Program-made: the position numbers and the translations under genes | Part shown: piece after piece, positions 23,695 through 39,372 of the stretch | Position numbering within the stretch: position 1 is the first letter of the stretch | Layout: every line of letters begins with the position of its first letter | Origin: an uncultured virus (IMG/VR IMGVR_UViG_3300024308_000304) | Lineage: Duplodnaviria > Heunggongvirae > Uroviricota > Caudoviricetes | Strand: one strand, 5' to 3' | Virus record (IMG/VR): IMGVR_UViG_3300024308_000304 | DNA: 64,000 nt | The notes under the pieces: generated by a model | The model's database searches: none | Told to the model about the DNA's origin: nothing | What the model saw: only the letters and a program-made list of their open reading frames with translations

Positions 23695-26061
23695 TTATAC
23701 TTTAGGTTTATTTTTCTTTGGTAAAACAGATAACTCCTGTACCAATTCTTTATTGTTAACCATAAATTCATCTCTTAAATCAATAATGCTACGCTTCCTT
23801 TGCTCTGATGGCAATACTTTGATGTAATTCAAAAATTCAACTGCTAATTTTTTATCAACATCATTAATTAAGAAGTGATTATTAACTAAATTAACAGTAT
23901 CAAATTTATCACCTTTAAGTTCAGAACGTTCCATCTTCTCAACAAAGCCACGCATAGTTTTCCAGAAGCTGTAATATGGAAGTTTAATCTTAATCATATT
24001 CAATGCATCATCTTCACACACAAAACCTTCAAATTGTCTCTTAGTAGTGAAAGCACTTTCATTAGAAACTGAATTAAAGAATTTTTCAAAATTTTCTGGA
24101 GATTCAAAATGAGCAAATCTTTTTTTCACTTTAAGATCTTTAAATCCTTCTGCAAACTTTGTTAATTCTTCATAATTCAATTGTGAGAACTTGAATTCTC
24201 TCTTAACAATACCAATCAATACCAAGTGTGGTGTATCATATTTCACAATATGAGGATCATTTACTGGATCATTCACTTCAAACAGATAATTAACATTATG
24301 CTTGTTAGCAAAAATCTTCATATGTTCTAATTCAGATTTAGTAAACTGAGCTTTGGCAATATCTTTCAAATAAGTAGAAAATTCTCCACCAATATCTGAT
24401 TTAGAAGCAAAGATGAGGCTATCATTCTTTGAATCATAACCAACAATACCTAAGAAACCATTCTCTTTTTCATAAAGATTGATTTTTCCTTTAAAATTAC
24501 TTTTTACAACTTCCATTTTCGCAGAAGGAATTCCTCGTTCATTAACATTAAAGAACTTTTCAAAACCACGAGCTACAATTTCACCTGACTCAGTATTAAT
24601 AAACAAACCACGAGCATGAATTAAAAGCTCATTTTCAAAACGTTTATCAAAAAAAGCTTCTTTCTTGAAATTGAAAGCTGAAATATGTGGTAAGTCTTCA
24701 AATGTTTTTTCACGAATAAGTTCATTTGCTCTCAAATCTTTAACAATCTCAAGATTTTCTTTACTGTAGTTTACTTTATTTTCTAAAAAATCACTCAAAT
24801 TGTTAACATCTGCTTTTGTTATAAACATATTTTTTTCTTTTTCAATCTTCTCAACAGCAGTTTTATTAAATACTTTATTAGTAATATAAATACCATTAAA
24901 ACCGTTTTTATCCAATCTAAGAATTGGCAAGCTACCACCATATTCAACATCAGCCTCAAGAGCAAAGCTTTTTGGGTGAGTCTCAAAACCATGTTTATAT
25001 TGGTTTCTATGGCCATGAACTTGATACCAGTTATTATCTTGGTTTAGTTCATTAAATGTTTTATCAACATCATAACTGTAAGAACCATAACCTCTCATAT
25101 ATTCAATAGTAGTCAAAAGTCTTGGATGTTTAGGTACATTAGCAAGACCAGCATGAGTTGCCATAATATTTTTATCTCTATAATGAATAAAGCTGTAAAG
25201 ATGAAGCTTATTATAAAGCTCACGCATATCTTCTTTATTAATACCAGCTTTTAACAACTGTGGTAATGTATTATAAGTAAATTCACTTGGTGGAGTCAAA
25301 ATATCATTACTGTAGTTATACAAGTGTAATTCATGGTTCCCAGCTAAAAAAACAAAGTTCTCATAATCAATATATTTCTGAACGAAACGGAAACATTTAT
25401 CATTCTGAATACCACGATCAAGATAGTCGCCAACTAAAATATAGACTTCATCCTTGCTATAAGTGTTTTGTTCAAAGAACTGTTTCAATGGATAGAATGA
25501 ACCTTGAAGATCACCAATCCAGTTAATTTTCTTATAATGACTAAGATCCAAAAGTAAAGATTCTGGAGTTGCTTTTACATAAGCAAGAGCTTGTTCTGGT
25601 GTAATAATTTTAGATGGATCATCAAATTTTGAATTAACAAACAAATCATAGTTACGATCAAGGGCTTCTTTAGGAAGTCTTTTATACGTTTCACGTTGTT
25701 CATTTCTTTTATAATAGAATTCTTTATCCATCAATGGGAAACGAACAATTCTGTAGTCATAATGATATTGTTTCATAATGTCTAAATAAGTATCAATTGA
25801 TTTTTGATCTTGGTTTAAGTTATCAATGAAAATAGCTCCGCCATTACTCAACCTTACTTTAAATGCTTCAATAAATTTAGCAAAAACAAAATCCTCTCTA
25901 TTATTAGAAAGAACAAGATTACCAAACATATCAGTAGCAGCACCAGCGTAGACATGACGAATCGCATCCAAAGACAATGTATGTGGGTCTAATTCGTTCT
26001 CATGAATAAATGTTGATTTACCTGTTCCTGGCATTGCTGAAAGAAAATACACAATTCTCAT
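23695..26061 (-). CDS. Trifunctional RNA repair enzyme: polynucleotide kinase, metallophosphoesterase and Rnl1-like RNA ligase
   Basis: AMPGTGKS; GDLQG, GDYLDRG, GNHE, HGH; EKFFN, KENGFLG (motif I), EGFV, IKIK. Confidence 0.88.
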   Translation of the reverse strand: MRIVYFLSAMPGTGKSTFIHENELDPHTLSLDAIRHVYAGAATDMFGNLVLSNNREDFVFAKFIEAFKVRLSNGGAIFIDNLNQDQKSIDTYLDIMKQYHYDYRIVRFPLMDKEFYYKRNEQRETYKRLPKEALDRNYDLFVNSKFDDPSKIITPEQALAYVKATPESLLLDLSHYKKINWIGDLQGSFYPLKQFFEQNTYSKDEVYILVGDYLDRGIQNDKCFRFVQKYIDYENFVFLAGNHELHLYNYSNDILTPPSEFTYNTLPQLLKAGINKEDMRELYNKLHLYSFIHYRDKNIMATHAGLANVPKHPRLLTTIEYMRGYGSYSYDVDKTFNELNQDNNWYQVHGHRNQYKHGFETHPKSFALEADVEYGGSLPILRLDKNGFNGIYITNKVFNKTAVEKIEKEKNMFITKADVNNLSDFLENKVNYSKENLEIVKDLRANELIREKTFEDLPHISAFNFKKEAFFDKRFENELLIHARGLFINTESGEIVARGFEKFFNVNERGIPSAKMEVVKSNFKGKINLYEKENGFLGIVGYDSKNDSLIFASKSDIGGEFSTYLKDIAKAQFTKSELEHMKIFANKHNVNYLFEVNDPVNDPHIVKYDTPHLVLIGIVKREFKFSQLNYEELTKFAEGFKDLKVKKRFAHFESPENFEKFFNSVSNESAFTTKRQFEGFVCEDDALNMIKIKLPYYSFWKTMRGFVEKMERSELKGDKFDTVNLVNNHFLINDVDKKLAVEFLNYIKVLPSEQRKRSIIDLRDEFMVNNKELVQELSVLPKKNKPKV

Positions 26062-34359: not shown

Positions 34360-35592
34360 ATGAACAAATCATTATTTGAAAACTTAACAGAACAAAAAAA
34401 TATGAAAACCCTTATTGAAGATAAGGGTTTTACTTTTGTTGATAAATTAGAAAATAACTATGATGTTGTATATTCATATGAAAAGACACAGTTTCCATTT
34501 TCAGATGGGATCTACGAATATGCCTATATCAAATTTCCATCTGCTATAGAAGCTTTTGAATTTGTTTTTGAAAATTATACCAAATCACAAATTAATATTA
34601 TTGTATCTTCCTTGAGATATTTGAATAAAATTTTTTCAATTAAAGTTACAAAAGATGTTGACGAAAATAATTTTGTATTAAAAGTACGCCAGAATTCTGG
34701 GGGAGTACACATTGATCTGGGATATTTCACAATTCAGACATATATTCAAAATAAGTATTCAATATTTTTTGGTGAATATAATGTAAATAAAAGAACTCTA
34801 TTGAAAGAATTAGCATACGAAAAAATCTATGAGACTATTCTTTTTGAGTATAAAAAGAAATTAAATGAAATCTTTAAAGAGCCTTCACTAAATGATTATA
34901 GCTCTAAACATTTTAAAGCTTTAGAAAATGTTATGACTTCACATGATCTTTTCGCATTGAGAACTGAAAGAATTTTTAAAAAAGAAAGAGATTATATTTT
35001 TGCAAGAAAATTATTCAATTTTAAAAATATTGAAGTCGTCGAAACAATTTCAATGTCTTATCAATTGAAATCTAAAGTCAATCATGAAAATATACTTTAT
35101 GTGGCTGGTGATGAAAGAATAAAAAAGAATGTCGCTAATACAGTAAAACATGGAAGTACAATGGTTGGGTTCAAACCAAGAAACATTGATTATTTAGATG
35201 CACTTTTAGATGGTAATATGACTAAAGAGAACATTGAAATCATCAAGAAGTCTCTCAAGTTAATTATTACAATAGAAAAAGCTTTTGGGCAATACAAAGA
35301 TGATGCGATTGTCTTTGAACGTTACAATAATGATAAAGTTGCAATGCATAACTTATCAACATTTGATAAAATAGTTTCTATACATTATGGAAGATCAAAT
35401 ATTTTATTTGGAACTAAAATTAGTGCAAATATGTATGGATTTGATTATAGCTCAAAAGAGTCATTGAGTTATTCAGAAATCTATGAATCAATAAAGAAAG
35501 GTGCGGATAATGAAATTGCTAAATTTTTAGATATACCAGTTGAAAACGTTACCGAAAATGAGTATCATTTAGTAGAAATGATGCATTATTAA
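34360..35592 (+). CDS. Hypothetical protein with apparent internal duplication (C-terminal motif family)
   Basis: YEKIYETI...FKALENVM mid-protein mirrors YSEIYESI...YHLVEMMHY at the end. Confidence 0.65.
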   Translation: MNKSLFENLTEQKNMKTLIEDKGFTFVDKLENNYDVVYSYEKTQFPFSDGIYEYAYIKFPSAIEAFEFVFENYTKSQINIIVSSLRYLNKIFSIKVTKDVDENNFVLKVRQNSGGVHIDLGYFTIQTYIQNKYSIFFGEYNVNKRTLLKELAYEKIYETILFEYKKKLNEIFKEPSLNDYSSKHFKALENVMTSHDLFALRTERIFKKERDYIFARKLFNFKNIEVVETISMSYQLKSKVNHENILYVAGDERIKKNVANTVKHGSTMVGFKPRNIDYLDALLDGNMTKENIEIIKKSLKLIITIEKAFGQYKDDAIVFERYNNDKVAMHNLSTFDKIVSIHYGRSNILFGTKISANMYGFDYSSKESLSYSEIYESIKKGADNEIAKFLDIPVENVTENEYHLVEMMHY

Positions 35593-35597
35593 ATCAA

Positions 35598-35626
35598 TTG
35601 ACTTTATTATTGAAAATTGATAAAAT
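35598..35626 (+). promoter_or_regulatory. sigma70 promoter of the Leu leader transcript
   Basis: TTGACT-17-TAAAAT. Confidence 0.75.
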
Positions 35627-35654
35627 GTAAAAATACAAACAGAGGAATGAAACT

Positions 35655-35717
35655 ATGTTCACTATAATTCGATTATCACTCCTACTCTTAAGCTCACTAT
35701 TACTTAGCTTGGGCTAG
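35655..35717 (+). CDS. Leucine-rich attenuator leader peptide MFTIIRLSLLLLSSLLLSLG
   Basis: GAGGA RBS 8 nt upstream; 9 Leu codons in 20; resembles LeuL-type leaders. Confidence 0.8.
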   Translation: MFTIIRLSLLLLSSLLLSLG

Positions 35718-35720
35718 TAT

Positions 35721-35825
35721 ATCTATTTGTCTGCATTTTGGACGGGTAGATGTCCAGATGCAGAGTTGATCGAATTAACTTCATTCTACAACTATCGCGT
35801 CTGGACCCCAAAAGGGTCTTTTTTT
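35721..35825 (+). promoter_or_regulatory. Transcription attenuator (alternative hairpins, antiterminator, terminator)
   Basis: GTCCAGATGC (35752-61) pairs with GCGTCTGGAC (35797-806), which overlaps terminator GGACCC-CAAAA-GGGTCT followed by a T run. Confidence 0.8.
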
Positions 35826-35865
35826 ATGGGCGATAGCCTAGGATAGACTACGACTTTAAATAATG

Positions 35866-35878
35866 CAAGTTATTGATT
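35866..35878 (-). promoter_or_regulatory. IHF-binding consensus
   Basis: AATCAATAACTTG matches WATCAANNNNTTR. Confidence 0.45.
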
Positions 35879-35915
35879 TTAAAGGAAAATATTTAAAAAT
35901 AATTTAAAAAAGTAG

Positions 35916-35944
35916 TTGACAAAATGTTTTTCACTTGGTAATAT
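35916..35944 (+). promoter_or_regulatory. Strong sigma70 promoter for the tRNA array
   Basis: TTGACA-17-TAATAT with A-tract UP element. Confidence 0.8.
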
Positions 35945-36053
35945 GTACAACATGAAGAGTTAAGAAACAAATTAAAAAGATAGAATCAATAAAGCGGTAA
36001 ATCAAAAGTTTTAAGTTATAATGTGTCAAAAGCACAAATTGATTTTATCATAT

Positions 36054-36139
36054 GCGGATGTGGCGAAATTTGGTAAACGCGACCGTCTCAAAAACGGTTC
36101 TTTATAAGATTGTGAGTTCGAGTCTCACCATCCGCACCA
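36054..36139 (+). tRNA. tRNA-Leu(CAA)
   Basis: Cloverleaf, loop CT-CAA-AA, long variable arm, ACCA end. Confidence 0.92.
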
Positions 36140-36224
36140 AATAAAAAATGGGTTGCTCTGGTCACTGACTGGAACCTTTAAAACATACTAACTATGAATA
36201 CTAGTATTATTAAAGGCAAACCCC

Positions 36225-36309
36225 TGACAAAAGTGATGAAATGGTAGCCATGACACCGAGCGAAGGTGTGCCCAATAAGGCGTGAGGGTTCAAGTCCCTT
36301 CTTTTGTCA
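36225..36309 (+). ncRNA. tRNA-Leu-like RNA with aberrant anticodon loop (GAGCGAA), 9-bp acceptor helix, no CCA
   Basis: Intact D arm, variable arm and T arm (GGGTTCAAGTCCC); lacks U33. Confidence 0.7.
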
Positions 36310-36320
36310 AGTTTAAGAAT

Positions 36321-36404
36321 GCGTTAGTGGTGGAATGGTATACACGTTGGTCTAAGAAGCCAATGCCGCAAGGATTGAGAGTTCAAGTCTCTCCTAACGC
36401 ACCA
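36321..36404 (+). tRNA. tRNA-Leu(AAG)
   Basis: Loop CT-AAG-AA, long variable arm, ACCA. Confidence 0.92.
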
Positions 36405-36415
36405 AATTAAGATAT

Positions 36416-36500
36416 GCCCTGATGTTGGAATAGGTAGACATAACGGTCTAAGAAGCCGTGGCCGAAAGGCATGCGAGTTCGAGTCTCGCTTAGGGCACCA
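36416..36500 (+). tRNA. tRNA-Leu(AAG)
   Basis: Loop CT-AAG-AA, ACCA. Confidence 0.92.
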
Positions 36501-36509
36501 AATATAAAA

Positions 36510-36594
36510 GCCTCTCTGGCGGAATTGGTAGACGCGGCGGATTCAAAATCCGCTTCCGAAAGGAGTGTGGGTTCGAGTCCCACGGGAGGCACCA
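36510..36594 (+). tRNA. tRNA-Leu(CAA)
   Basis: Loop TT-CAA-AA, ACCA. Confidence 0.93.
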
Positions 36595-36610
36595 AATTGT
36601 TACAAATTAT

Positions 36611-36696
36611 GCCCAAATGGTGAAATTGGTAGTACACAGGAGACTTAAAATCTCCCGGCGAAAGTCGTGTCGGTTCGAGTCCGACTTTGGGCACCA
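36611..36696 (+). tRNA. tRNA-Leu(TAA)
   Basis: Loop CT-TAA-AA, ACCA. Confidence 0.93.
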
Positions 36697-36835
36697 GATT
36701 ATTACAAACAGCCCGTAGTTACTAGGGTGTTGATAGGAGCTAAAGAAATGCTGCTTGATAAGTGTTTAAATGTACACCTCTTGCGGGAGAAAGGTCAAGG
36801 TGCGGGCGTTGATTATCAACTTGTAATAAAAATAT

Positions 36836-36919
36836 GCGGAAGTGACGAAATGGTAGACGTGCTGGTCTTAGAAGCCAGTGTCGAAAGACGTGTGGGTTCG
36901 AGTCCCACCTTCCGCACCA
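36836..36919 (+). tRNA. tRNA-Leu(TAG)
   Basis: Loop CT-TAG-AA, ACCA. Confidence 0.93.
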
Positions 36920-36921
36920 GA

Positions 36922-37073
36922 TTGCTTAAATGATGGAATGGTAGACATAGGGTGATAGCCCTGTCATTTACAGGTTCGAATCCTGTTATTAGCAGAAATG
37001 TTAATATGGCGGAACGGTAGACGCGATGGACATTGAGTCCATGACTTGTAGGTTCGAGTCCTACTTTAAGCAA
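36922..37073 (+). ncRNA. Strand-swapped double tRNA-like RNA
   Basis: Two D/T-arm sets; outer 9-bp helix TTGCTTAAA/TTTAAGCAA; inner 8-bp helix TATTAGCA-GAAA-TGTTAATA. Confidence 0.75.
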
Positions 37074-37081
37074 CATATTAT

Positions 37082-37165
37082 GCGTTAGTGGTGGAATGGT
37101 ATACACGCTGGTCTAAGAAGCCAGTGCCGAAAGGATTGTGAGTTCGACTCTCACCTAACGCACCA
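37082..37165 (+). tRNA. tRNA-Leu(AAG)
   Basis: Loop CT-AAG-AA, ACCA; near-duplicate of 36321..36404. Confidence 0.92.
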
Positions 37166-37186
37166 GATTAAAAAAAATGTGTTTAT

Positions 37187-37271
37187 CCCCGGATGGTGGA
37201 ATTGGTAGACACAGGAGACTTAAAATCTCCCGGCGAAAGCCGTGTCGGTTCGAGTCCGACTCCGGGGACCA
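37187..37271 (+). tRNA. tRNA-Leu(TAA)
   Basis: Loop CT-TAA-AA, ACCA. Confidence 0.93.
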
Positions 37272-37281
37272 GTTTTAAAAA

Positions 37282-37373
37282 TTCAATATCGAAGGTTCGA
37301 ATCCTTCTCTCGTGTAATAACGGGGTGGTGAAGTGGTAGACACGTTTGCTGAAATGCATTCTAAAATATTGGA
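37282..37373 (+). ncRNA. Circularly permuted tRNA-like RNA (T arm, closed acceptor helix, D arm), Y-RNA-like topology
   Basis: GAAGG-TTCGAAT-CCTTC, then TCTCGT/ACGGGG, then GTG-AAGTGGTAGA-CAC, enclosed by TTCAATAT/ATATTGGA. Confidence 0.65.
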
Positions 37374-37385
37374 TTACTTTTTTAA

Positions 37386-37471
37386 GCCCGAGTGGTGAAA
37401 TGGTAGACGCGGGGGACTTAAAATCCCTTTCCTTAATCGGAGTGCCGGTTCGAGTCCGGCTTCGGGCACCA
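37386..37471 (+). tRNA. tRNA-Leu(TAA)
   Basis: Loop CT-TAA-AA, ACCA. Confidence 0.92.
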
Positions 37472-37541
37472 AATGTATACTAAAATTTGTTGACTTATTT
37501 TAATATTTGATTTAAAATATCGGCAAATTGAGGTAAATAAA

Positions 37542-37883
37542 ATGAATAAAAAATCTAAAGGACAAGTAGTTTTTGTCAATCTGTATGATAACCGTTATTG
37601 GAATGTATTTCTTGATGGTGAATTATTTCATGAAATACATAAGGAAGACTTCACAACATATGTCTTCAGAGAATCAAACAGAAAAGCATTGGCTAAAGCA
37701 TCATCACTTGATGAAAAAGATCTTCGTTATTCTTATATAGATCTTGAAAATGGCATTAATGAAGATGAATACAATTCAAATGATTATCAAGAATTTCAAG
37801 TAGTTTTAAGTGCTTGCAATTTCTATAATATTGATTATGTATTTAAAGATGTAAACTACGAATACATTGAAACTAAATACTAA
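37542..37883 (+). CDS. Hypothetical protein inside the tRNA array
   Basis: 113 aa, GAGGT RBS, own TTGACT promoter. Confidence 0.7.
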   Translation: MNKKSKGQVVFVNLYDNRYWNVFLDGELFHEIHKEDFTTYVFRESNRKALAKASSLDEKDLRYSYIDLENGINEDEYNSNDYQEFQVVLSACNFYNIDYVFKDVNYEYIETKY

Positions 37884-37912
37884 TAATTGGTAGAATGTAG
37901 TAATAAATTAAT

Positions 37913-37997
37913 GCGGAAGTGATGGAATGGTAGACATAGCAGTCTCAGAAGCTGCTGCTGTAATGGCGTGAGAGTTCAAGTCTCTTCTTCCGTACCA
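37913..37997 (+). tRNA. tRNA-Leu(CAG)
   Basis: Loop CT-CAG-AA, ACCA. Confidence 0.92.
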
Positions 37998-38008
37998 AAA
38001 AAACAAAG

Positions 38009-38035
38009 ATCCAACGGAAACGTTGGATTTTTTTT
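38009..38035 (+). terminator. Terminator ending the tRNA array
   Basis: ATCCAACG-GAAA-CGTTGGAT followed by T run. Confidence 0.88.
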
Positions 38036-38085
38036 GATTACAATTTCATTAAGTCTATAATAAAAGTACCCGAAGGTACTTTTTA

Positions 38086-39372
38086 TTATTTATTAATATG
38101 ATTTTGGAAATCAATATTAAATGCAAAACCTAAATTTAACATTTCATGATGTATTTTATCATGACTCCAGTTAGTTTCAAAAAAATAACTATTACCATGA
38201 ACATTATAAATATTCCATTCTTTTGGGAAGAACGTTCCTAATATATCACAATCTTGATCATATTCACACTTATAATGCTCCCAAATTTTTACAGGAGTGG
38301 TCAATATAACCGTCCCACCCTCAACTTTATCTCTCTTAAATATAGCAAATAAAAAATCAGACGAATTTGTATAGCTAGATTGATCAAAGTAATCAAAGTT
38401 ATTGGTTGATGAATATTCAGTGTGCTCAGTAGAAGGTTCTTTGAGTTCAACATCACGATGAATGAATTCATCAAATTTTTTGTCATATATAAAGCCTTGT
38501 TTAATCATAATACTGTGAATTTCTTCATTTGAAAGATCTGTTTCCATCATCCATGTTCCACATTCATTTACATCGTCAATAATCCATTCTTTTGGGACGA
38601 ATTTAGCTGGTGTGTAATCTGGTTGATCATACATGCAATTTTGCATATTCCAATACTTAATTGGAGTGATCAAAATAGTTTTAAATCCACGCATACCATA
38701 ATCTTCTTCGCCTCGCCAAACAGTAAATACATAATCTGCTGCAGTTTTTAATTTTTTTTGTTTGCTTTCTTTTTCTGGTGGCTCATCTTTGTTGATATAA
38801 TCGTCAAATTCTTGATCAAAAGTGAACCCAATTTTTATTAACTCTTTTTTAATTTTCGCATTGGTTAATTCTGTTTCGAATACCCATGTACCAGATTCAT
38901 TCACATCTTCAATTAGCCAATCTTTTGGGAAAAATTCTGCTGGTGTTTCATCAGGAGTACATGACTGTGCTTTGTGCTCTTTCCAGTGGCTTAATTTATT
39001 AATATAGATTACTGTTTCATCTTCACTTTGAATATCATAATCAAATCCTCGCCAAATAGAGAATACATAATCAGAAGCTTTCAATCCATTAGAGGCTACC
39101 TTTTCAAAACCATCTTTGAAAGCATTACGATCTTCTTGAGTTACATGATAATTAAGAGGGTTTGCATTTTTTCTTTCTAAAGATTCATTTTCTTGAACCA
39201 GAGATAATACACCATCGTTTTCTACAATACCAACCATCTTATCGCCATTATATTGAAATACTCTCACATCTTGGTTTGCAGAGTTTTTGTATTTTGTTAC
39301 ACGTTTCCAACCACTTGCTTTAGTATCAGGAAAAAGCTTAATTAAATAGTTCTTACAATCTGCTGTACTCAT
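38086..39372 (-). CDS. Hypothetical protein with three ~105-aa repeats
   Basis: Repeated D(Y/F)xFxxW/F...PKxW...ET...GFxFD units. Confidence 0.8.
   Translation of the reverse strand: MSTADCKNYLIKLFPDTKASGWKRVTKYKNSANQDVRVFQYNGDKMVGIVENDGVLSLVQENESLERKNANPLNYHVTQEDRNAFKDGFEKVASNGLKASDYVFSIWRGFDYDIQSEDETVIYINKLSHWKEHKAQSCTPDETPAEFFPKDWLIEDVNESGTWVFETELTNAKIKKELIKIGFTFDQEFDDYINKDEPPEKESKQKKLKTAADYVFTVWRGEEDYGMRGFKTILITPIKYWNMQNCMYDQPDYTPAKFVPKEWIIDDVNECGTWMMETDLSNEEIHSIMIKQGFIYDKKFDEFIHRDVELKEPSTEHTEYSSTNNFDYFDQSSYTNSSDFLFAIFKRDKVEGGTVILTTPVKIWEHYKCEYDQDCDILGTFFPKEWNIYNVHGNSYFFETNWSHDKIHHEMLNLGFAFNIDFQNHINK

Follow-up and report, generated by a model that had tools for sequence, protein, structure and literature searches.

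A candidate leader-peptide attenuator in front of a tRNA-Leu operon in a phage-like element

Why should an operon of tRNA-Leu genes be preceded by a minute, leucine-rich open reading frame (ORF) and a transcription terminator? The question is raised by a DNA stretch of 64,000 nucleotides (referred to below, at its full length, as the window) from the uncultured virus recorded in IMG/VR as IMGVR_UViG_3300024308_000304, in which a compact module at positions 35598–35830 lies upstream of an array made up mostly of tRNA-Leu genes; all features given below are on the plus strand unless stated otherwise. The answer favoured here, with a probability of roughly 0.65, is that the module is a ribosome-mediated (leader-peptide) transcription attenuator with the tRNA-Leu operon as its cargo. 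Outside operons for amino-acid biosynthesis, and a few for synthetases, leader-peptide attenuation is to our knowledge not known. The genes that would be controlled in the window are tRNA genes and a single ORF of 113 amino acids, not genes for amino-acid biosynthesis or synthetases, and no leader-peptide attenuator gating tRNA genes was found in the literature searched, which was covered at the level of listings and abstracts.

The leader module and its predicted switch

The module begins with a promoter-like site recovered by scanning, P1 (35598–35626; TTGACT-17-TAAAAT with a TG-extended −10), from which transcription would start at about 35633. A Shine–Dalgarno (SD) sequence, GAGGA (35642–35646, with GAGG at 35642–35645), is located 9 nt 5′ of an ATG at 35655; SD motifs of the GGAG type are also found 5′ of most long ORFs in the window. 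The leader ORF that follows (35655–35717) encodes MFTIIRLSLLLLSSLLLSLG in 20 codons and ends at a stop codon at 35715. Nine of its 20 codons specify leucine and five codon types are used (TTA three times, CTC and CTA twice each, CTT and TTG once each). An earlier reading of this DNA from its letters only (the sequence-only reading) had listed a promoter, a ribosome-binding site and a 20-codon leader with nine Leu codons; all of them are present, and the codon counts are exactly as listed.

Four of the nine Leu codons (CTC twice, CTA twice) are rare in the window, where the usage over 66 long ORFs is TTA 0.44, CTT 0.22, TTG 0.20, CTA 0.063, CTG 0.043 and CTC 0.033; under this usage, the probability of drawing at least four of nine Leu codons from CTC, CTA and CTG is 0.026. 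A Leu content of at least 40% is reached by six of the 589 short ATG-initiated ORFs (12–40 codons) on both strands of the window, and an SD-like motif precedes only one of these six, the leader; judged by their coordinates, the other five are taken as lying inside long genes. For each Leu codon of the leader, a cognate anticodon is present in the tRNA array.

The leader peptide is hydrophobic, and the module may alternatively be read as an independent gene for a hydrophobic membrane peptide of 20 residues, for example a type I toxin-like one, with its own promoter and terminator and an mRNA that hides the SD sequence. Leucine would then serve hydrophobicity, and the array would be transcribed only from a second promoter downstream. 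The SD/start region does pair with a downstream stretch, both in the window and in the related genome described below, and such pairing is usual in mRNAs of small toxic peptides. The over-use of rare Leu codons argues against a peptide gene of this type. Type I toxin–antitoxin systems pair a hydrophobic peptide of about 20–50 residues with an antisense RNA gene that overlaps it or is adjacent; a consensus scan, by which such a site may be overlooked, called no promoter-like site for an antisense RNA on the minus strand of 35598–35830, which may also speak against a toxin-like gene.

Downstream of the leader stop codon, five segments, A to E, are able to form alternative helices. Segment A (35721–35732), which would be covered by a ribosome at the stop codon, pairs with segment B (35740–35751) through 12 pairs, four of them G–U (−11.2 kcal/mol). 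As part of 35730–35744, segment B may otherwise pair with 35751–35764, which includes segment C (GTCCAGATGC, 35752–35761), through 14 pairs (−17.8 kcal/mol). Segment C is bound to B in the terminator form, and in the antiterminator form to segment D (GCGTCTGGAC, 35797–35806) through ten pairs, one of them G–U (−21.1 kcal/mol including an inner hairpin). The antiterminator shares bases with the 5′ arm of an intrinsic terminator (35803–35825), the hairpin of which (35803–35819; local energy −8.1 kcal/mol) has a stem of six pairs and a loop of 5 nt and is followed by a T-run. The spacer between C and D (35762–35796) contains stretches that can pair with the SD/start region and with leader codons 4–7. 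Helices A:B, B:C and C:D, as well as terminator D:E, had all been proposed in the sequence-only reading, and folding recovers each of them: A:B and B:C are mutually exclusive, as are C:D and the terminator, and segments A to E folded alone adopt A:B together with C:D (−37.3 kcal/mol). A 206-nt stretch of this region folds at −54.6 kcal/mol (z = −3.63), and none of 200 shuffles folds as well. Between 35826 and the first tRNA gene at 36054, the scan called no further terminator-like site.

The existence of alternative antiterminator and terminator helices is also what a translation-independent RNA switch would display if it bound tRNA-Leu or a protein directly, as a T-box does. A search of 35300–38300 with the Rfam covariance models (cmscan, E up to 10) returned 28 matches, none of them inside 35598–35830, so that neither the T-box family nor an amino-acid leader family (Leu_leader and others) is matched there. 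The element is about 190 nt long and contains a well-placed SD sequence and ORF, and a switch of the T-box kind is considered highly improbable.

The influence of a ribosome was modelled by folding the transcript 35633–35819 with the ribosomal footprint kept single-stranded. The footprint was taken either as −15 to +13 around the A-site codon (footprint model) or as all of the RNA 5′ of the front edge of the ribosome (5′-masked model). In the footprint model, the terminator has a probability of 0.67 when no ribosome is present, of 0.04–0.16 with a ribosome on codons 1–12, where the C:D antiterminator reaches 0.72–0.90, and of 0.99 with a ribosome at codon 20 or at the stop codon. In the 5′-masked model, the antiterminator forms with the ribosome on codons 1–18 and the terminator with the ribosome at the stop codon; expressed by the position of the front edge, the antiterminator has a probability of 0.66–0.98 up to 35722, and the terminator one of 0.62–0.72 at 35725–35728 and of 0.96 at 35731. 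The dependence on ribosome position postulated in the sequence-only reading, with termination when the ribosome is at the stop codon and C:D pairing when it stalls on Leu codons, is reproduced in silico and, in the 5′-masked model, is conserved in the relative.

A switch score was defined as the terminator probability at the stop codon multiplied by one minus the terminator probability on codons 9–12. The score of the real sequence is 0.94, compared with 0.057 ± 0.098 for 300 dinucleotide shuffles of all of the sequence upstream of D, none of which reaches the real value; a looser three-way switch criterion was passed by one of the 300. Across the 54 terminator-like sites detected in the window, the switch test gave 0.89 for the leader site and 0.37 for the next best. 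In the models, the position of the ribosome has a much greater effect on the conformer than in shuffles. A plain gene for a membrane peptide needs no antiterminator over its terminator, and the leader terminator is the sole conditional one of the 54. The dependence on the ribosome also argues against a third explanation, according to which the ORF is incidental and the module is a non-coding element, either a small RNA with a structure of its own or a terminator that insulates the tRNA operon against transcription from outside. Insulation would be in line with the presence of a separate terminator at nearly every gene of the window.

Between the attenuator and the tRNA genes, a second promoter-like site, P2 (35880–35944), was called by the scan. 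It consists of an A/T-rich upstream tract, TTGACA-17-TAATAT and a TG-extended −10, with hexamers and TG at 35916–35944, and thus coincides with the second promoter that the sequence-only reading had placed at 35916 and to which a basal role may be ascribed.

If the module is an attenuator, a ribosome would load at the GAGGA and ATG of the transcript that starts at P1 and would translate the 20 codons of the leader. When Leu-tRNA is plentiful, it would reach the stop codon and cover A; B:C would form, D would be left free, the terminator would fold and transcription would end. A ribosome lagging on the Leu codons would leave A free for pairing with B, upon which C:D would form and no terminator would arise. 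The polymerase would then run through P2 into the tRNA genes, the 113-residue ORF and the tRNA-Leu(CAG) gene, as far as the terminator at 38005. In a transcript that is not translated, pairing of the SD/start region with the C–D spacer would favour termination. P2 would provide expression independent of the attenuator, to which read-through from P1 would add. We infer a chain that leads from leader translation and stalling at Leu codons to read-through and raised tRNA-Leu levels; the shortage at its origin may result from the codon demand of an element with 28% GC, from starvation or codon mismatch, or from cleavage of tRNA by the host. As far as the folding models can indicate, the element probably makes more tRNA-Leu when ribosomes read Leu codons slowly.

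Conservation in a relative and the weighing of the readings

A search of IMG/VR with a pattern for two adjacent Leu-type tRNAs matched 81 loci, of which 80 were analysed, and the leader module was found in only one of these, L139; other Leu-rich mini-ORFs among them occur in L103, L150 and L163. L139 is part of IMGVR_UViG_3300031088_000737 (G001), a sequence of 181,270 bp that is classed as a provirus in IMG/VR and is 58% complete according to CheckV. Its array comprises 11 tRNA-Leu genes, tRNA-Leu(CAG) being represented, together with one Gln(UUG)-like gene and one unusual gene with a four-base anticodon, in nearly the same order as in the window. Protein identities between the two genomes are 73% for ClpA, 67% for Fpg, 74% for an AI-2E transporter and 54% for a nucleoside deoxyribosyltransferase, the last three of which are the ones that match the window among the 23 ORFs in the 24 kb of flanking sequence of L139. 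Over 360 nt, the module shows 80.8% identity, compared with 66.9% for the DNA of the neighbouring fpg gene.

The leader of the relative, MFTTIRLSLLLLSSLLLSLG, differs in three codons, ACT>ACA, ATA>ACT (Ile>Thr) and CTC>CTG, two of which are synonymous changes. Codons 10–20 and the stop codon are identical over 36 nt, with synonymous sites almost frozen, and all six Leu codons are present in the leader of the relative, for which the usage test of the window gives a probability of 0.017. The −35 and extended −10 of P1 are identical, with a diverged spacer; GAGGA, ATG, frame and stop codon are retained. Segments A and C and the terminator with its T-run are also identical, and segment D contains a single change, G35799>A, by which a G–U pair of C:D becomes A–U. 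Segment B has GGG>AAT and one inserted T, which are compatible with both A:B and B:C, and the distance between the stop codon and segment A is 3 nt in the window and 1 nt in the relative. P2 has a diverged spacer and retains its −35 and −10, the tract that precedes them and the first bases of the transcript, and the P2 module is found before both tRNA arrays of the relative.

In total, 41 of the 42 pairs of the four core helices remain standard in the relative and one is lost. The 35-nt spacer between C and D has diverged in sequence; in each genome it pairs with its own 5′ region at −15.5 kcal/mol, whereas a spacer and a 5′ region taken from different genomes give −11.9 and −10.9 kcal/mol, and shuffled spacers reach −15.5 kcal/mol in eight and two cases out of 1000, respectively, for the two genomes. 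A promoter and terminator scan of L139 likewise recovers the two promoters, P1 and P2, as well as the leader terminator and one at the end of the operon. In the 5′-masked model, the antiterminator of the relative has a probability of 0.73–0.98 with the ribosome on codons 1–18, and the terminator one of 0.84–0.97 from codon 19 onwards. An alignment in which elements are kept and linkers have diverged is, at the level of sequence, the footprint of function.

What this footprint protects bears on the alternatives. For a membrane peptide, the near-freezing of synonymous sites is difficult to reconcile with neighbouring proteins that are only 54–74% identical. The gene upstream of the module encodes 410 amino acids and is co-directional in the window, and encodes 237 amino acids and is divergent in L139; since the upstream gene differs and the module and Leu array stay together, the module is assigned to the tRNA operon rather than to the upstream gene, which again disfavours an independent peptide gene, and this explanation is regarded as unlikely. 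Conservation at the nucleotide level would suit a non-coding RNA function. On the other hand, P1 persists in the relative despite the divergent orientation of the gene upstream, which suggests that the transcript is made on purpose, the signals for translation and the frame persist with mostly synonymous changes, and the stop codon is positioned 1–3 nt before segment A in both genomes.

The sequence-only reading had also suggested looking for other amino-acid-specific leaders with tRNA arrays in relatives. The second array of the relative (L170 925–1311, corresponding to G001:C1:155724–156110, and up to L170 3448) contains six tRNA-Ala(TGC) genes, one Ala-GGC, two Arg-TCT, one Arg-CCT, two Met and one gene left unassigned by ARAGORN. 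It is laid out in the same way as the Leu array: a P1-like site, AGGA and an ORF of 13 codons encoding MNIQLTIRARAIS are followed by a terminator and by the P2 module seen at the Leu array. MNIQLTIRARAIS is encoded with Arg (AGA) and Ala (GCC, GCG) codons that match the tRNAs of this array. The suggestion was borne out as regards a codon-matched ORF in the same layout, but not as regards a predicted switch; the one alternative series of helices is weak. A terminator placed directly before the P2 module with no predicted switch is what a shielding element would look like; set against the conserved translation signals at the Leu array, a non-coding module nonetheless appears rather improbable.

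Several results weigh against an attenuator. At the second array, the terminator of 11 pairs has a probability of 1.00 in all 29 modelled states. The outcome of the switch at the Leu array depends on the fold model, and thermodynamic models ignore folding kinetics: in the footprint model, stalls on codons 13–16 and 19 of the window lead to the terminator because a long-range helix, 35665–35675:35767–35777, re-forms behind the ribosome, and in the footprint-only model of the relative the terminator (0.76–0.99) results whenever the ribosome stalls at codon 4 or later. Antitermination at the Leu codons of the relative would therefore require that the RNA behind the ribosome be unavailable for pairing. 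Conservation rests on one relative (n = 2), and among the core pairs four have changed on one side (G–U to A–U) and none on both sides. The peptide itself, hydrophobic and nearly identical in the relative, is also what the membrane-peptide explanation would predict. Finally, P2 is close to consensus, conserved and located between the terminator and the tRNAs, such that the array can do without read-through and attenuation may add little to its regulation. A strong and conserved P2, which would likewise suit an independent peptide gene, implies that the array is not silent in the absence of read-through and limits the regulatory range that can be claimed.

Close relatives were sought in several collections. 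The terminator/D block and the P2 module were found on no IMG/VR contig besides the relative, and neither an IMG/VR search with the 410-residue, Fpg and 428-residue proteins nor a search of GTDB genomes with Fpg revealed close relatives. A search with ClpA yielded only a 44% match, in a Campylobacter metagenome-assembled genome, and a search with an alignment of the ClpA clade led to 80 IMG/VR loci, none of them more than 53% identical. Relatives of the 410-residue protein at the 99% and 68% level, and of ClpA at 73–98%, are encoded on other contigs. INPHARED phages share with the window single tRNA-Leu genes, or distant ClpA or Pnkp-ligase proteins, and nothing more. A metagenome scan with a DNA pattern returned seven hits of 45–72% GC that have no similarity to the window and are attributed to chance; the pattern also missed L139, because position 35799 differs there.

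Relation to known attenuators and possible significance

The closest analogues are the leader peptides of enterobacterial biosynthetic operons, such as leuL of leuABCD and the trp, his, phe, thr and ilv leaders. In common with leuL, the window element has a short, putatively translated leader that is rich in cognate codons, rare Leu codons among them; as in leuL-type leaders in general, the stop codon is near the first pairing segment, exclusive helices end in an intrinsic terminator, and termination would take place both with smooth translation and without translation. Whereas leuL gates leucine biosynthesis, the window element would gate tRNA-Leu genes. It further differs from leuL in having five segments, with a ribosome at the stop codon triggering termination by covering A, in lacking sequence similarity (no Rfam leader match), in the presence of a second promoter 3′ of the attenuator and in being phage-like. 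The pheM leader of Escherichia coli pheST, the phenylalanyl-tRNA synthetase operon, provides a precedent for leader-peptide attenuation of a translation component in response to the supply of charged cognate tRNA; pheM, however, gates a synthetase in a cellular operon and not tRNA genes on a mobile element.

T-box riboswitches also report the state of a single tRNA through a choice between antiterminator and terminator and control translation-related genes, but they bind uncharged tRNA directly and need no ribosome, and no T-box is matched in the window element. With one sigma-70-type promoter behind the other and an A/T-rich tract upstream of the inner one, the window element recalls the tandem P1–P2 promoters of bacterial rRNA and tRNA operons, from which it differs by the putatively translated leader and predicted conditional terminator between its promoters. 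The novelty would lie in the cargo, tRNA genes; the mechanism itself is textbook, and by sequence comparison the element is not homologous to the leu, his or trp leaders.

The role of phage tRNA arrays is a matter of debate, with codon supply and escape from host tRNA nucleases as the candidates (PMC10264068, PMC13015707). The main text of PMC13056530, on bacterial Schlafen tRNases, names cleavage of tRNA-Lys, tRNA-Met and the tRNA-Ala of T5; within that text, the terms 'leucine', 'tRNA-Leu' and 'tRNALeu' do not occur. If the attenuator reading is correct, a mobile element would gauge the reading of Leu codons and make the missing tRNAs, a direct feedback on decoding capacity that would provide phage tRNA arrays with a concrete regulatory rationale and a small building block for synthetic circuits designed to respond to tRNA supply. 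More tentatively, and with somewhat less than an even chance, the module may be one member of an undescribed, recurrent class of phage circuits, whose codon-matched leaders would test how well the infected cell can decode and would switch on the phage tRNA arrays upon shortage; here, almost every Leu isoacceptor would be sampled, and depletion or cleavage of tRNA-Leu by the host might be countered. The element that bears the module also encodes an RNA-ligase fusion of the tRNA-repair type, described below.

Grouping of tRNA genes by amino acid is seen on many large viral contigs of IMG/VR (L119, L149, L103, L123, L156, L165 and others). L119, for instance, has the order Trp-Trp-Lys×4-Met-Leu×6-Arg×3, and L123 has seven Leu genes and one Tyr gene. 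The upstream regions of these loci were screened for amino-acid-rich mini-ORFs only.

The tRNA operon and its genomic setting

Between 36054 and 37997, ARAGORN predicts 12 genes, ten of which are tRNA-Leu genes (CAA twice, AAG three times, TAA three times, TAG and CAG), and Rfam confirms 11 of the 12. All of the tRNA-Leu genes are called by both methods: CAA at 36054–36139, AAG at 36321–36404 and 36416–36500, CAA at 36510–36594, TAA at 36611–36696, TAG at 36836–36919, AAG at 37082–37165, TAA at 37187–37271 and 37386–37471 and, as the tenth, CAG at 37913–37997, 3′ of the ORF of 113 residues. The operon was expected from the sequence-only reading to hold only ten tRNA-Leu genes downstream of the leader; the number of tRNA-Leu genes is correct, but 'only' is not, as a Gln-like gene, the gene that ARAGORN labels 'Arg-GCG', a weakly scoring tRNA-like sequence, pieces of tRNA genes and the ORF are found in the operon as well. 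A strong terminator with 12 pairs (38005–38032) closes the operon, and in the relative a terminator is also located directly 3′ of the last tRNA.

The copies per anticodon (TAA three, CAA two, AAG three, TAG one, CAG one) follow the Leu codon usage of the element (TTA 0.44, TTG 0.20, CTT and CTC 0.26, CTA 0.06, CTG 0.04). The array uses the anticodon AAG where GAG, the usual tRNA-Leu anticodon in bacteria, could stand.

The 'Arg-GCG' gene (36226–36309), the second in the array, is the one that Rfam does not accept as a tRNA. It is a long-arm tRNA-like gene that lacks U33 and an encoded CCA, and its counterpart at the same place in the relative (L139 2842–2927, minus strand) is assigned a four-base anticodon, 'cgct', by ARAGORN. 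Since changes between the acceptor stems of the two genes are compensatory, the gene probably still yields a functional RNA rather than being a defunct tRNA. The Gln(UUG)-like gene of 76 nt (36999–37074; ARAGORN and Rfam) has a Leu-type D arm and A in place of U at position 33, and is nearly identical in the relative (L139 2377–2452, minus strand), amid an otherwise all-Leu array. A weak tRNA-like sequence (36924–36994) is matched by the Rfam tRNA model with 31.2 bits and is not called by ARAGORN, and isolated T-arm and 5′-half tRNA fragments lie at about 37290–37360, between intact tRNA-Leu genes; the weak match and the fragments look like decay after duplication within the array.

The 113-residue ORF inside the operon (37542–37883) has 22 relatives among 1.84 billion representatives and is partly conserved at the same place in the relative. 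Its structure is modelled with a pLDDT of 94.6, and no structural match was found for it (Foldseek E of at least 0.095; best VIA Z 3.9).

The nature of the element that carries the operon is less readily defined. Outside the tRNA block, the GC content of the window is 25–34%. Full-length PHROG matches were obtained for a polynucleotide kinase-phosphatase-RNA ligase (Pnkp-ligase) fusion, a ClpA-type ATPase, an NMN adenylyltransferase, a dCMP deaminase, a MazG-like protein and a DprA-like protein. The Pnkp-ligase fusion (788 amino acids; 23695–26061, minus strand) matches phrog_8238 over its full length (E = 2.7e-145) and is 29–33% identical to proteins of SPbeta-like and Staphylococcus phages; judging by these matches, it belongs to the type of RNA-repair enzyme by which cleaved tRNAs are rejoined. 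In the 181 kb of the relative, no match was found for Terminase_6N, Gp23, an HK97-type capsid, a tail sheath or RNA polymerase beta, a search in which a Gp23 control likewise gave no signal, and ClpA relatives of 64–73% identity are found on metagenome contigs of 0.27–1.04 Mb. Because structural and terminase genes were not matched in the relative and the ClpA relatives are on large contigs, the element is called only phage-like, and it may be a phage, a plasmid-like element or a small cell.

Two further interpretations were considered and rejected. A giant-virus origin is not supported by AAAATTGA, which we take to be the mimivirus early-promoter motif and which is not enriched (25 occurrences versus 24.1 expected), and the genes carry expression signals of the bacterial kind, SD motifs and intrinsic terminators. 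An alternative genetic code was discarded, as table 4 lengthens the long ORFs little.

The proteins of 410 and 428 amino acids that neighbour the operon belong to no family and have no usable Atlas match. For the 428-residue ORF (38086–39372, minus strand), which converges on the tRNA operon, the family of bacterial EndoU nucleases gave a match of 17.3 bits (E = 0.0064), below the cut-off of 25.3 bits. Nearly every gene of the window is followed by a terminator in the form of a short G+C hairpin and a T-run, 54 terminator-like sites being detected in the 64 kb, and many of these terminators are palindromic, serving convergent genes on both strands.

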